A stretch of DNA of 64,000 nucleotides from positions 223,048 to 287,047 of the forward strand of contig JAHYJR010000001.1 in the NCBI GenBank assembly GCA_019429005.1, read 5' to 3'. This document shows, piece after piece, positions 984 to 58,199 of the stretch (positions are counted from its first letter, which is position 1; each line of letters starts with the position of its first letter). The notes beneath the pieces were generated by a model, which saw nothing but the letters and a program-made list of their open reading frames with translations, ran no database searches and was not told where the DNA came from. The translations under genes were made by a program, and so were the position numbers. This DNA is from Nanobdellati archaeon (GTDB taxonomy: Archaea; EX4484-52; GLR71).

Positions 984-1826
984 TTATAATCCGTATTTTT
1001 TATTGAATCTCGTAATTTTTTGATTAAATCGTTCTGTTTCTTTATCATTTAACATTGTATGTATGGTTTCAAGCCTATCTTTTGCAGTTTCATATAATTT
1101 TAAATCTTGTTCCTGTTTTTTTTGCATATAGCCTAATTCCATTTCAAATCTACTTTTATCTACAGATTGTTTTAGTTCTTGTGAGGTTGGTGTGGTGTCG
1201 CCTATATAGTTATTTAAACTTGGTACTTTTTCAACTTGTTCAAGTTTATATTTAATAGCATTTATGTCATTTTTTTGTTTTTCAAGTGTATTTAATGTAA
1301 TTTTTATTTCTCTTTCTACTCCATAGTGTGTGCTTTTTAATTGTTCTTCTTTTAGTTTTGGGTTATTTATGATTGTATCTAAATCACCAAGATAATTTTC
1401 TGCTGCTTTTTCTTTTTGTTCAAGTTCGGATTGATAAATCGCTTGCTTACTCTGTAGAGAATCTAGTCCGGCCTGAACTGCCTTTTTAGCGTAACAATCT
1501 ACCGTTTTGTTTTTATATTGTATACCCTGTTGATTTAGTTCTATATTATCTTGACGCTTCAATTTTTCATAACCTGATGTTGGCAGTTCTTGTTTTCCCG
1601 CATATTTTTCAGCTTTTTGAACTGTTTGATTGTATGAACTTTCAGCTTTTTGTAATTCAATAAGTGCACCATTAAAAGTTCTATTTGCTGTATTATTTTC
1701 TATAGATAACTCTTCAGCACGTTTTTTTTCATTATTAATTCCCAAAAAGCCTACCGAAACAATAATGGTTAAGGTTACAGAAACAATTTGCATAATTTCA
1801 ACAAATACCAATTCAAGTGATGTCAT
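984..1826 (-). CDS. Hypothetical protein, N-terminal membrane anchor plus long coiled coil
   Basis: 280-aa ORF with a hydrophobic N-terminus followed by E/K/Q-rich helical sequence. Confidence 0.7.
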   Translation of the reverse strand: MTSLELVFVEIMQIVSVTLTIIVSVGFLGINNEKKRAEELSIENNTANRTFNGALIELQKAESSYNQTVQKAEKYAGKQELPTSGYEKLKRQDNIELNQQGIQYKNKTVDCYAKKAVQAGLDSLQSKQAIYQSELEQKEKAAENYLGDLDTIINNPKLKEEQLKSTHYGVEREIKITLNTLEKQKNDINAIKYKLEQVEKVPSLNNYIGDTTPTSQELKQSVDKSRFEMELGYMQKKQEQDLKLYETAKDRLETIHTMLNDKETERFNQKITRFNKKYGL

Positions 1827-22888: not shown

Positions 22889-23086
22889 ATGCTCAAAAAA
22901 CAATCTCAAATCGGTTTAAGTCTATTTTTAATAGGTATCGGTGCGTTGATTATTGGTTATGATCTACTAAAAAACCTAAATAGTTCTGTTTCTTTGTTTA
23001 TAGCATCAATCTTTGTATTAATCGGTATCGCTTTATTCTTAAATTCTAAAAAACCGTTAAGGCTTCAAACAAAAATCAAGGTTTGA
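22889..23086 (+). CDS. Small two-TM membrane protein
   Basis: 65 aa with two hydrophobic helices; a diverged paralog lies upstream. Confidence 0.7.
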   Translation: MLKKQSQIGLSLFLIGIGALIIGYDLLKNLNSSVSLFIASIFVLIGIALFLNSKKPLRLQTKIKV

Positions 23087-23639
23087 TCCTTTCAATCCTA
23101 TAATATGTTGCATCGCCTTCTTCATCAACAACAGCAAGAAGTGCTCTTGCACGTATGTTTTGGCTAAGTCTAACATATCGAGACCATTCTTGATATGAAC
23201 TTGTATAGTTCTCAGGTACTGCATGGACATTAAATTTTGTATGTTCTTTAAGGTCTTTTGAACCGCCTTTATACGGATTAACACCTCTATCATAAACTCT
23301 AAAATGTGTTCCAAATTTAAATCCCGATTTAACTATATAACCACGATTTCTAAGGTCTCTATAGACAATATATTTATGTGCAAACTCTTTGTCTATTTTA
23401 CATGCAATCGAATAAAATGTCTTTATATCAATTTCTTTTTTAGCTTTCATTAAGACCATATGTTCTCTTTCAAGAAGAATCATGGTCTCTTCGAGACTAA
23501 GAAGGAGGTATTTTATTTTTTCTTCTTCAATAATTTTACCGAAATATTTTTCCTGGAATATAGGATTCCATTCTTTTTCATTCCATATAACTACTTTGTT
23601 TTCAAGAAGTTCTGCAGTGACTATTGTGTTTTCAACCAT
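23076..23639 (-). CDS. endA: tRNA splicing endonuclease subunit
   Basis: LSLEE, Y.VYRDLRNRGYIVKSGFKFGTHFRVY...EH, AVVDEEGD.TYY, C-terminal RIKP. Confidence 0.93.
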   Translation of the reverse strand: MVENTIVTAELLENKVVIWNEKEWNPIFQEKYFGKIIEEEKIKYLLLSLEETMILLEREHMVLMKAKKEIDIKTFYSIACKIDKEFAHKYIVYRDLRNRGYIVKSGFKFGTHFRVYDRGVNPYKGGSKDLKEHTKFNVHAVPENYTSSYQEWSRYVRLSQNIRARALLAVVDEEGDATYYRIERIKP

Positions 23640-53018: not shown

Positions 53019-53127
53019 TGGACCCTGCGCGATTTGTTCAGTAGATTTGTTTTAAAAACAAAATCTTCTTTTGAACGCGCGGCCTCCGCCTTGCAAGGGC
53101 GGCGATCTACCACTGATCTAAGGGCCC
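53019..53127 (-). tRNA. tRNA-Ala(TGC) in the 16S-23S spacer with a 37-nt T-loop intron (53034-53070)
   Basis: GGGCCCT...CCGCC CT TGC AA GGCGG...GCGCG TTCAA^[intron]^AT CGCGC AGGGTCC-A; G3:U70 present. Confidence 0.93.
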
Positions 53128-56228: not shown

Positions 56229-56289
56229 ACATTTATCTTGATTCTATTTTATATAAATAATATTGTTATATATAGTTTTTAAGAATTAG

Positions 56290-56375
56290 TGCAGGGGAAG
56301 GGATTTGAACCCTCGTACCTACTAAAGGACTGAGTCCTAAGCCCAGCGCCGTTGACCAGGCTTGGCGACCCCTGC
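56290..56375 (-). tRNA. tRNA-Leu(TAG)
   Basis: GCAGGGG...CTGGG CT TAG GA CTCAG, long variable arm, GTTCAAATC...CCCCTGC-A. Confidence 0.95.
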
Positions 56376-56480: not shown

Positions 56481-56759
56481 TGGTGCTCCCGCCGGGATTT
56501 TCACGACGACTTTATACAAAAGTTGATTACTTAAGCAACTCTGTGTTAATACACAGGTGGTTAGTAATCAGGTACTCCATTTACACAGATTTGATAATTA
56601 ATATTGATTTTCATCAACTTGTTTAATATTAACTGTGTATTGGTGGAGAACCTGTCGATTTGAACCCGAGTCCTCGGCTATCTTTGGCATACTATCCGTT
56701 GGGACAGACACCTAAGCCACGAAAGGCCGAAATGATTGGCCGGTCTACACTACAGGAGC
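56481..56759 (-). tRNA. tRNA-Glu(TTC) with two introns: 40 nt at 37/38 (56680-56719) and 161 nt at 59/60 (56498-56658); CCA encoded
   Basis: Exons 56759-56720, 56679-56659 and 56497-56481 join into a complete cloverleaf; BHB TTCA-AAT / TGAA-AAT at the second intron. Confidence 0.9.
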
Positions 56760-56773
56760 ACACGATTATGTTT

Positions 56774-56977
56774 TTATGCTTTATTTATTTTAAATTGTGC
56801 GATATCATCTATTAAGTCTATGTGTGTTATAAACATATTTCTGCAACAATATCTTGTTATTTTTAATTCATCAAGCACTAGTTTTGGATTCTCTTTTTTA
56901 CTTACTTTGTCTGTGAACTTTTCCCATTTACCTGCAATTGGAGTCCCACATGTTATACATCTTATTGGTATCATCAT
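56774..56977 (-). CDS. rpoN: RNA polymerase subunit N (Rpo10)
   Basis: MIPIRCITCG...LDEL..TRYCCR.M...H.D. Confidence 0.97.
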   Translation of the reverse strand: MMIPIRCITCGTPIAGKWEKFTDKVSKKENPKLVLDELKITRYCCRNMFITHIDLIDDIAQFKINKA

Positions 56978-56984
56978 TTGGATC

Positions 56985-57389
56985 TTACCTCTTACTTGAC
57001 TGTCTCTTTGCTCTTGGTCCTTGACTAGAACTTGATTGTTTGTGTGGTTCTGTTCTTCTAGGATCATAAACTAATAAGCTTCTATCATACTGTATGAACA
57101 TGTTTTTTATGGCATCGTCTTTTGTAATTCCAACGATACCTCTTGCAATAGCTTGTCTTGCAGCCTCAACTTGGCTAGTAATACCACCACCATTTGTTAT
57201 GATGTTTGCATCTATTGTATTTGCAAGGTTTCCACTGAGTAACAATGGTTCCATAATTTTGAGTTTTAAGAATTCTGGCTCAAATACATTTAGGTTTATT
57301 TTATTTATTCTGATAGTACCTGTACCTTTCTTGATTATTGCTCTTGCAACAGCTTTCTTTCTTTTACCCGTTGTATGTATTGAATCCAT
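56985..57389 (-). CDS. rps9: 30S ribosomal protein uS9
   Basis: GKRKKAVARA, GGG...Q..A.RQAIARG, YDRSLLV.DPRR.E, GPRAKRQ.S.R. Confidence 0.97.
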   Translation of the reverse strand: MDSIHTTGKRKKAVARAIIKKGTGTIRINKINLNVFEPEFLKLKIMEPLLLSGNLANTIDANIITNGGGITSQVEAARQAIARGIVGITKDDAIKNMFIQYDRSLLVYDPRRTEPHKQSSSSQGPRAKRQSSKR

Positions 57390-57397
57390 AATTATCA

Positions 57398-57814
57398 CTA
57401 TATTTTAGCACCAAGCCATTCTGTAATTTCAAGAATTGTCATGTATTTTTTATTTTTAAGTTTATCTTTATGTAATTCTTCAAATTTTTCAGTATCGCCT
57501 TTTACATTTTCTGGTTGACCTATATAAACTTTAAGTCTTTTATATGCTGCTTGACCTGAACTTTTTTTGATTGGCAACATTCCTCTAACTGATCTTCTAA
57601 CCATTTTATCCGCATCTCTAGGTTGGAAAGGCCCTGTCGCAGGATGACCTCGTTCTCTTCGGGTTTTACATTTATCAAATATGTCTTTTTTAGATCCTGT
57701 TATAATCATTTTTTCAGCATTTATAATTGTGATTTCTTCACCATTTAAAAGTCTTTTTGCAATGATTGATGCTGTTCTTCCTACTATTGTGTCTGTACCG
57801 TCTATTATAATCAT
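57398..57814 (-). CDS. rpl13: 50S ribosomal protein uL13
   Basis: IIDG....GR.AS..AK.LL.G...INAEK..ITG, GP..PR, RR.VRGMLP. Confidence 0.97.
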   Translation of the reverse strand: MIIIDGTDTIVGRTASIIAKRLLNGEEITIINAEKMIITGSKKDIFDKCKTRRERGHPATGPFQPRDADKMVRRSVRGMLPIKKSSGQAAYKRLKVYIGQPENVKGDTEKFEELHKDKLKNKKYMTILEITEWLGAKI

Positions 57815-57833
57815 AAATATCAACAAATCAAAT

Positions 57834-58199
57834 TCAAGCAAGTATTTTTATATTTTTCCCCTTTGGGTTCTGTTTAATCATTTCTTGCAGTGTTATATAT
57901 GTGCTTTTTGCATCATTAATCTTTTTAATTGCAGATTCTGATGCATTCCATGCCGAAATTGTTACTTCTTTTGTTAAAGTTCCAACTGCTAGCAATTTTC
58001 CTGGAACAATAACGTAATCGCCTTTATTTGTGTATTTTTCTATTTTTGCGATATTCACAACAGGTCTTATTCTTGAAGATTTATTTAATCTCTCTGCTAT
58101 ATCTTTCCAGATATTAACTTTATTGTCTTTTGATGCTTTTATTAATATATTTACTATATTTTTTGTTATTGGATTTGTAGGTCCTGTTGGTTTTCCCAT
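57834..58199 (-). CDS. rpl18e: 50S ribosomal protein eL18
   Basis: TNP, IW.D.A.RL....R.R..VN..KI, VPGKLL..G, S.SA..KI. Confidence 0.96.
   Translation of the reverse strand: MGKPTGPTNPITKNIVNILIKASKDNKVNIWKDIAERLNKSSRIRPVVNIAKIEKYTNKGDYVIVPGKLLAVGTLTKEVTISAWNASESAIKKINDAKSTYITLQEMIKQNPKGKNIKILA

Follow-up and report, generated by a model that had tools for sequence, protein, structure and literature searches.

Introns at position 59/60 of the T-loop that are bounded by a bulge-helix-bulge (BHB) motif, as well as tRNA genes holding several introns, are described for tRNA-Cys and tRNA-Pro(GGG) of Candidatus Micrarchaeum ARMAN-2 and for the Thermoproteales (PMC3239211, PMC5829648). The lengths given for archaeal tRNA introns are 11 to 129 nucleotides (nt) in a 2014 review (PMC4090602) and <100 nt in another source (PMC4033280). 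In the Thermoproteales, transposed introns of related sequence occupy tRNAs of different isotypes (PMC4033280, PMC4390854, 10.64898/2026.10.13.758758), and in the preprint among these sources (10.64898/2026.10.13.758758) they serve as the sole positive control for the copying of introns from one tRNA gene to another. The intron kind, the 59/60 site, multi-intron tRNAs, and inter-tRNA copying were already known (PMC3239211, PMC5829648, PMC4033280, PMC4090602, PMC4390854). Here we analyze a tRNA-Glu(UUC) gene with two introns, one of them 161 nt long, in a 64,000-nt stretch of DNA (the window) from a Nanobdellati archaeon (contig JAHYJR010000001.1, positions 223,048 to 287,047). We consider it likely that the 161-nt intron is a spliced, diverged, now single-copy member of a mobile lineage of structured T-loop introns at 59/60. 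Judging from sequence comparisons, members of this lineage have occupied at least two different tRNA genes, and in a sister genus (g3) the lineage is linked to a family that copies actively. The locus departs from what is known in its length, in a branched fold that is conserved, in the use of one target site, and in its host lineage. We found no description of such a family in the literature searched, which is no proof that none is in print.

With the ARMAN-2-type introns, the window intron shares the site, a helix-bulge-helix-bulge-helix (hBHBh') motif with the T-loop UUCA as its central helix, and excision by the splicing endonuclease EndA (PMC3239211, PMC5829648). Further, an intron at 37/38 may co-occur in the same gene in that type. 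The ARMAN-2 tRNA-Cys 59/60 intron is 13 nt long (PMC3239211), compared with 161 nt here, and the window intron also differs in having a conserved multi-branched fold. Noncanonical introns are tied to EndA of the epsilon2 or (alpha-beta)2 type, whereas this genome seemingly has a single short EndA; because the window motif is strict, a short single EndA should be able to cut it. With the transposed introns of the Thermoproteales, our locus shares relatedness across isotypes, which implies copying between tRNA genes. It differs from them in the use of one site (the T-loop), a length of ∼100 to 165 nt, a covarying structure, and a DPANN host lineage, as well as in the distribution of copies: the window member is single-copy and diverged, and the multicopy state occurs in sister genus g3.

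The tRNA-Glu(UUC) gene runs from 56759 to 56481 on the minus strand, exactly where a preliminary description of the window had placed it. With position 1 of the precursor at window position 56759, its parts are as follows.

56720 to 56759, minus strand (precursor 1 to 40): exon 1, with the acceptor 5' strand, D arm, anticodon stem 5' strand, and loop to position 37
56680 to 56719, minus strand (precursor 41 to 80): intron 1, 40 nt, at the canonical site 37/38, strict hBHBh'
56659 to 56679, minus strand (precursor 81 to 101): exon 2, with position 38, the anticodon stem 3' strand, variable region, T stem 5' strand, and T-loop positions 54 to 59
56498 to 56658, minus strand (precursor 102 to 262): intron 2, 161 nt, at the T-loop site 59/60, strict hBHBh', four-way junction
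56481 to 56497, minus strand (precursor 263 to 279): exon 3, with T-loop position 60, the T stem 3' strand, acceptor 3' strand, discriminator A, and encoded CCA

Under a definition in which cleavage follows the second bulge nucleotide, both direct reading and a motif scan found in each intron the 3-nt bulges on opposite strands, the 4-bp helix, and the flanking helices of hBHBh'. BHB-1 is formed by UCGGC/GCCGA, a CUUU/AAAG central helix, the bulges CGU and AUA, and GGC/GCC. BHB-2 is formed by GGG/CCC, UUCA/UGAA, two AAU bulges, and CGAC/GUCG, and direct reading matched exactly the strict motif that had been proposed for 59/60. Strict 3-4-3 motifs (3-bp flanks, G-U allowed) occurred 1.5 times per shuffled 279-mer and 5 times in the real precursor. 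Since such motifs are frequent by chance, the evidence lies in the exact restoration of the cloverleaf rather than in the motif alone. ARAGORN found nothing in the precursor but returned a tRNA-Glu(ttc) of 78 nt once both introns were removed in silico, in agreement with the two-intron structure first proposed; with its intron option and intron 2 alone removed, it returned a tRNA-Glu with a 40-nt intron. The first 28 nt of exon 1 are identical to those of the intron-less paralogue tRNA-Glu(CUC), and the T arm and acceptor of the restored cloverleaf also equal those of the paralogue. A third 3-4-3 motif (GAGU/ACUU with AU-rich flanks; window 56518 to 56571, precursor 189 to 242) was rejected as being at chance level; it would excise arm 2 of the intron fold described below and is incompatible with the long arm.

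We found no other Glu(UUC) gene in this genome among 36 matches to the tRNA model, 33 ARAGORN genes (intron option), or the results of two exon-based searches; an intact copy elsewhere, which the preliminary description had allowed for, was thus not seen. GAA accounts for 10,081 of 12,585 Glu codons (80%) in 380 open reading frames (ORFs) of at least 300 codons. The locus is the only, working tRNA-Glu(UUC) gene of the genome and must be spliced, and we infer that its precursor is spliced in vivo.

Intron 2 has a minimum free energy (MFE) of −43.5 kcal/mol, compared with −23.6 ± 3.3 kcal/mol for 200 dinucleotide shuffles (z-score, −6.1; 0/200 as low), and a second, independent set of shuffles gave a z-score of −5.3. 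The four-way junction of the preliminary description was recovered, with every helix named there present in both the MFE and the centroid folds:

56654 to 56657, minus strand: CGAC, the 5' strand of the inner BHB helix h', which closes the junction by pairing with GUCG at 56504 to 56507
56570 to 56653, minus strand: long arm, with AGGU.CUCCA/UGGAG.ACCU, UACACAG/CUGUGUA, and a GAAA-capped tip
56525 to 56569, minus strand: arm 2, with a GAUUACU/AGUAAUC base, an internal loop, and a CUGUGU/ACACAG top
56509 to 56523, minus strand: arm 3, a short ACUUU/AAAGU hairpin

Ensemble pair probabilities for the full precursor at 37°C lay between 0.86 and 0.99 in the arms, except for arm 3 (0.53); the BHB-2 helices reached 0.56 to 0.63 and the T stem 0.80. 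The BHB-1 pairs had a probability of ∼0 in this unconstrained ensemble, and a cloverleaf with both BHBs lies 10.6 kcal/mol above the MFE. The heptamer ACACAG/CUGUGU occurs twice in the intron, which is near the chance expectation, and by eye no equivalent repeat stands at the aligned columns of the homologues described below. A 17-codon ORF within intron 2, spotted by eye, was taken as chance.

The disfavored BHB-1, together with the failure of both default ARAGORN and the Rfam tRNA model to detect the gene, would be expected if the locus were a decaying, unspliced pseudogene. We regard this as very improbable: the locus is the sole Glu(UUC) gene of a 93.5%-complete genome in which GAA is the dominant Glu codon, its exons are intact, and both splice motifs are strict. 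The only mismatch in the exons is U13-U22, and the same D arm is found in the intron-less Glu(CUC) paralogue. We attribute the low probability of BHB-1 to a shortcoming of thermodynamic modeling where tRNA bodies are concerned and do not count it against splicing.

Comparative support for a mobile lineage comes from homologues in another tRNA. A single-sequence model of the 161-nt intron (R3) matched in 3 of the order's 42 species genomes (this order makes up the entire class): in its own genome and, end to end, in two genomes of sister genus g3 (G008 and G004).

G008:C72:15081-15241: intron at 59/60 of tRNA-Pro(GGG), R3 33.4 bits, E 1.8e-4 per genome
G004:C43:20082-20246: intron at 59/60 of tRNA-Pro(GGG), R3 26.8 bits, E 0.0065

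These introns are 161 to 165 nt long, so that homologous introns occupy Glu-UUC here and Pro-GGG in G004 and G008; the tRNA-Pro(GGG) of the window's own genome is intron-less. A MAFFT alignment made without structure gave 59% identity (94/158 columns). In tests on sequence alone, with the motif-constrained BHB ends trimmed and 1,000 shuffles per comparison, three schemes that suit this level of identity all separated the homologues from shuffles. Global alignment at +1/−1 gave z-scores of 8.9 (G008) and 8.4 (G004), and local alignment at 5/−4 gave 8.2 and 8.0, with 0/1000 shuffles as good in each case; local alignment at +1/−1 gave 8.6 and 4.8, with 0/1000 and 1/1000 shuffles as good. The g3 tRNA-Pro(GGG) hosts also carry a D-loop insert of ∼35 nt (L078:1406-1500, L080:1406-1500) and therefore have two introns, neither at 37/38.

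The homologues keep the fold as well as the sequence. RNAalifold recovered the same four-way junction from the MAFFT alignment, with compensatory changes in 13 of 52 pairs. When the MFE structure of the window intron was projected on the alignment, 83% of cells were paired, compared with 30 to 39% when the structure was slid, and 8 of 49 pairs were compensatory, compared with 1 to 2 when slid (0/500 shuffles as high). The CGAC/GUCG closing helix is kept, apart from a G-C pair that becomes G-U and a single A-C mismatch, and the long arm shows compensatory pairs. Arm 2 has three compensatory pairs in its base helix and a fourth in its top helix, most of which the homologues do not keep, and arm 3 is partly kept. 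Covariation, which the preliminary description had proposed as a check, thus speaks for conservation. Lack of conservation, which by that description would count against it, holds at the blastn level, at which none of the other 41 genomes has a relative (a search of all 42 with the 161 nt gave nothing beyond short AT-rich stretches, the best at E 8.9e-4 across 41 nt), and fails under covariance and permissive alignment searches, which find the homologues.

An old, vertically inherited intron that grew by local duplication or palindrome expansion would account for some of these observations, with the fold as a by-product and the likeness to the Pro introns as convergence forced by the motif. 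Many tRNA-Glu genes of the order have an intron at 59/60, which may be an ancestral site; the window intron has no second copy in its own genome; and it contains one heptamer twice. Against such an origin, similarity over the full length survives trimming of the motif-constrained ends (z-scores of 8 to 9), R3 matched none of >50 further 59/60 introns of these genomes, and compensatory changes keep the helices. Moreover, the orthologous tRNA-Glu(UUC) genes of the sister genus have a different family member or no intron. We therefore hold a purely vertical history to be quite improbable, and a mobile lineage remains our preferred reading.

The family to which the long introns are linked is a multicopy T-loop element of ∼100 nt. 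A covariance model built from four g3 tRNA-Glu(UUC) introns (R1) gave 11 to 19 matches per genome in five g3 genomes. An improved model (R2) identified 58 copies at E ≤ 0.001, which were present in 8/8 g3 genomes (2 to 14 copies per genome) and in 0/34 other genomes of the order, that of the window included. When 20 further copies were inspected, 17 lay at 59/60 of tRNAs for Gly, Ser, Arg, Leu, His, Lys, Gln, Thr, and probably Tyr (for example, L054:1501-1600, L058:168-267, and L065:159-258, among the g3 loci L052 to L077), and 3 were partial and outside tRNAs; one locus had an extra partial copy besides. Among 25 distinct copies, 96% of cells were paired and 12 of 24 pairs showed compensatory changes, for a covariation score of 0.438, compared with 0.203 in shuffles (0/500 as high) and 0.03 to 0.12 for slid structures. 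Mean identity was 68% for copies in the same host tRNA of different genomes (n = 12), 71% and up to 97% for copies in different hosts of the same genome (n = 58), and 70% where neither host nor genome was common (n = 140). The copies do not track the orthology of their host tRNAs, and the ∼100-nt element looks like a genus-specific burst of structured intron copying between tRNA genes.

Several side observations concern this element. The partial copies (L067:157-255, L071:163-259, L072:164-253, and L060:198-288) consist of two hairpins without splice-motif ends and sit just 3' of ORFs or of a tRNA; they may be terminator-like hairpins or may point to modules that arose at the DNA level. In tRNA-Glu introns of g3 (L024 to L027, alignment A1), the 5' strand beside the splice bulge has two possible partners, the adjacent strand (forming a hairpin) and the 3' tail of the intron (forming the splice-motif helix); both pairings covary between species, and this two-way pairing may be a conformational switch. 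One public record with a g3 tRNA-Glu and its intron (L024) is titled Campylobacterales bacterium and is probably a mis-binned contig.

The insert might alternatively be a DNA-level miniature transposon with hairpin ends, of the IS200/IS605 kind, whose target is the T-loop sequence and which is tolerated solely through being spliced out. Insertion always after the same short target, TTCRAA, would suit such an element, as would the richness in hairpins, the partial sister-genus copies outside tRNAs (3 of the 20 inspected and the extra one), and the direct repeats of tRNA 3' ends, as after integration, that follow tRNA-Glu genes elsewhere. However, only 2 of the 10 family genomes yielded a Y1 transposase (PF01797), which was found neither in the genome of the window nor in the five richest in element copies (68 to 92% complete), every tRNA-borne copy has a matching UGAA strand and bulges, which is an adaptation at the RNA level, and the helices covary as RNA pairs, G-U included. 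On balance, a transposon of this kind seems improbable to us as an explanation, compared with a lineage of mobile introns.

The g3 element and the window intron share the 59/60 site, the UGAA-carrying 3' end, and an orthologous host, the tRNA-Glu(UUC) of four complete g3 genomes and a fifth that is cut. The window intron differs in having a different 5' stem and two extra arms, and its similarity to the element was nonsignificant (11.7 to 13.8 bits). The connection runs through the long Pro introns: those of G004 and G008 scored 48.7 to 55.4 bits on the models of the ∼100-nt element, and because they score this high, the long variant contains the core arm of the element. The long arm of the window intron and the core arm of the T-loop introns in the sister genus are homologous. 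The link of the window intron to the ∼100-nt element is thus transitive only, via long-variant intermediates. A 13.8-bit match of R1 on the long arm was not confirmed by R2 and is not counted as evidence. Likewise, no comparison of the five T-loop introns of the window's genome with 25 distinct standard copies from the sister genus was significant.

It is important to note that a number of results weigh against the mobile-lineage reading. With R2 the window intron scored 11.7 bits at an E value of 1.8, second among the matches in the window, and had no match in the genome-wide search, which placed another locus on top, and in a sequence test of the window intron against the ∼100-nt element 40/200 shuffles were as good. 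Under harsh local scoring (+2/−3), the likeness to the Pro introns fell to P values of 0.019 for G008 and 0.085 for G004 (19/1000 and 85/1000 shuffles as good). The E values of 1.8e-4 and 0.0065 for those introns come from a covariance-model tool that by its own statement gives rough values, and the compensatory pairs (13/52 and 8/49) are drawn from three sequences, two of them 91% identical, with the tested structure taken from one of the three. In its own genome, blastn-short found no second copy of the 161-nt intron, and among eight introns (five T-loop and three canonical) none of the 28 pairs was significantly similar (lowest P value, 0.015). This gives no sign of present mobility in this genome; the preliminary suggestion that the intron is mobile has its support in comparison, from the homologues at 59/60 of Pro-GGG in two sister-genus genomes and the core they share with the multicopy family. 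The four other T-loop introns of the genome are weakly structured (z-scores of −0.4 to −2.6), so strong folding is no general requirement of 59/60 introns. The different hosts in the two genera would also fit an ancestor with both copies, followed by differential loss. Finally, none of the 15 sequencing runs listed is an RNA run, and in each the share of the sampled words is at most 0.05.

Searches beyond the order's genomes gave no further members. A 20-mer of the intron had 0 matches in viral contigs, and one viral-contig match to a 20-mer of the sister-genus element was rejected as chance, with the rest of the element missing. An exon-anchored metagenome scan for gaps of 140 to 170 nt returned 2 loci, both an intact tRNA-Glu followed by a repeat of its 3' end and not introns. 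A scan of genome contigs for gaps of 95 to 125 nt returned 7, of which 4 were sister-genus introns already counted and 3 were tRNA/3'-end repeats. Direct repeats of the tRNA 3' end, 100 to 170 nt downstream of tRNA-Glu genes, occur in g3 and in unrelated archaea (L007 at about 1680 to 1790, minus strand; L021, L022, L023, L028, and L029) and are a signature of past integration. In addition, g3 loci L007, L069, and L075 share a recurring motif with an anticodon-arm-like hairpin downstream of tRNAs.

The preliminary description had inferred a stable circular RNA with a function of its own, guide-like or mobile, and an excised intron that acts in trans (as a guide, decoy, or regulator), probably as a circle and with the junction serving that job, has several points in its favor. 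For its composition the fold is very stable, and compensatory changes preserve it between genera and between host tRNAs; hairpin introns of 32 to 50 nt suffice at 59/60 elsewhere, so the extra arms are unneeded for the BHB, and the host genome encodes fibrillarin and Nop5. In addition, archaeal tRNA introns circularize and the tRNA-Trp intron is a guide RNA (PMC4090602). The window intron resembles the box C/D guide nested in tRNA-Trp in being a long archaeal tRNA intron in a genome that encodes C/D proteins; it differs in lacking a complete box set and target complementarity above chance. Our motif scan agreed with the earlier remark that no complete C/D or ACA motif is present: we found one C-like box (precursor 143), one CUGA (189), and no C' or D' box, and ACA occurred only at precursor positions 105, 122, 124, 138, 214, and 216, never 3' of arm 2. 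The C-like stretch aligns with a helix strand of the apical hairpin of the homologues and is for this reason read as a decayed helix and not a box. By eye only, a K-turn was judged absent.

Targets were likewise not apparent. The longest complementarity was 9 nt to 16S and 10 nt to 23S rRNA, lengths that shuffled introns also reach (8.2 and 9.1 on average, up to 12 and 13); neither of the strands of the arm 2 pocket, for whose complements the preliminary description had proposed a search, has an rRNA complement; and no guide match to 16S or 23S rRNA was seen (tRNA targets were not searched). No Rfam family matched the intron at the gathering or E ≤ 10 thresholds, and the best subthreshold match reached 18.1 bits, compared with a threshold of 65.3, on the opposite strand. 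The loops and the top of arm 2, moreover, are the least conserved parts, and host tRNA and presence differ among close relatives, which fits a dispensable element better. The guide-like function thus found no support, and we think a trans-acting RNA of any kind an improbable account of the locus.

For an intron of a mobile lineage, the fold may instead act in cis. The genome encodes the machinery expected for splicing. EndA is represented by a single PF01974 match in the genome (93.7 bits, in a 187-amino-acid [aa] ORF), which by its size is of the homotetramer type and is the enzyme expected to cut both BHBs; it is the sole splicing endonuclease gene detected:

23076 to 23639, minus strand: EndA, 187 aa, PF01974

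The RtcB ligase is encoded on another contig (PF01139, 584.5 bits). The single EndA would cut both BHB introns and RtcB would join the exons and probably, by analogy with other archaea, the ends of the introns as well. The intron carries its own half of the splice motif (the CGAC/GUCG inner helix, the UGAA strand, and the bulge nucleotides), and the T-loop UUCAAAU, with the T stem, supplies the other. Because this T-loop half is near-universal, the same intron should be spliceable from any tRNA, and because splicing would need only a strict motif, this arrangement fits a single 187-aa EndA. The four-way junction most likely holds together splice strands that lie 160 nt apart and insulates the tRNA body; such a cis role in splicing competence would answer the need of any selfish insert in an essential gene. 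Circularization, the role of the fold in cis, and the route of movement are inferred here.

A more specific version, which we view as rather unlikely but less so than a trans-acting RNA or a transposon, is that of a mobile element at the RNA level. A portable splice-site half and a conserved junction would form a unit that, circularized by RtcB, reenters any tRNA T-loop, and reentry may proceed by a reversed endonuclease/ligase reaction or by recombination with a copied intermediate. The fold may then be kept for this life cycle or as a stable circular RNA and not merely for splicing, and the window copy may be an old, immobilized representative.

The wider genome and the order show how habitual the 59/60 site is in this lineage. 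A scan of the window's own genome (G000) for T-arm halves split by an insert gave 14 candidates, of which 9 were rejected by eye as non-tRNA. The remaining five are as follows.

G000 C4:151998-152140, outside the window: tRNA-Gly-UCC, 59/60 insert of 73 nt
The window locus: tRNA-Glu-UUC, 59/60 insert of 161 nt
53020 to 53127 of the window, minus strand: tRNA-Ala-UGC in the 16S-23S spacer, 59/60 insert of 37 nt, missed by ARAGORN
G000 C13:106494-106628, outside the window: tRNA-Asp-GUC, 59/60 insert of 62 nt
G000 C13:106755-106902, outside the window: tRNA-Lys-CUU, 59/60 insert of 75 nt

Standard finders gave only partial matches for the genes with the Gly-UCC, Asp-GUC, and Lys-CUU introns. In the tRNA-Ala(UGC) intron, the 3' bulge is on our reading 4 to 5 nt depending on register, which makes for a relaxed motif and is of note if the only EndA is of the strict type. 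Two further introns were recorded: one of 111 nt in the anticodon loop of tRNA-Gly(CCC) with a strong fold (z-score, −3.95; G000 C10:61783-61970), and one of 87 nt in tRNA-Trp with no fold above chance (z-score, +0.66) in which we saw no clean C/D boxes (G000 C4:151829-151991).

Across the order, a 59/60 intron of 32 to 50 nt was found in tRNA-Glu or tRNA-Asp in 15 of 16 loci fetched, and the sixteenth ends at a contig edge. In sister genus g3, tRNA-Glu(UUC) has a 59/60 intron of 99 to 121 nt in four genomes and is cut at a contig end in a fifth; no intron interrupts the gene in one g3 genome or in genus g2. Because T-loop introns recur in this way across tRNA-Glu and tRNA-Asp of the order, we regard 59/60 as a habitual intron site of the lineage.

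The host is a DPANN-type archaeon with a genome of ∼1.08 Mb (29.7% G+C, 15 contigs), and the window is archaeal, with archaeal 16S and 23S rRNA and RNase P RNA. The gene stands at the end of a ribosomal protein operon on the same strand, as had been proposed, and is followed by a second tRNA gene:

56774 to 58199, minus strand: L18e, L13, S9, and RpoN, upstream of tRNA-Glu
56289 to 56375, minus strand: tRNA-Leu(UAG), directly downstream of tRNA-Glu

The gap between the RpoN stop and the start of tRNA-Glu is 14 nt, and the Glu-Leu tRNA pair is present in the 6 family loci that reach beyond tRNA-Glu.

The locus bears on how protein-spliced archaeal tRNA introns reach new sites and spread. The window locus and its relatives would be a second clear case of copying between tRNA genes, in a different superphylum, with traits that make it useful: a single target site, introns beyond the 11- to 129-nt range, and a covarying structure. 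Its members appear to be at different stages (in one genus a burst of recent date, in the window's genome a lone old copy), and target choice, structural requirements, and turnover thereby become testable by comparison and by in vitro splicing. Further, the locus illustrates that standard tRNA finders miss essential genes: in this genome, five tRNAs, including the only Glu(UUC), were missed or partly detected.

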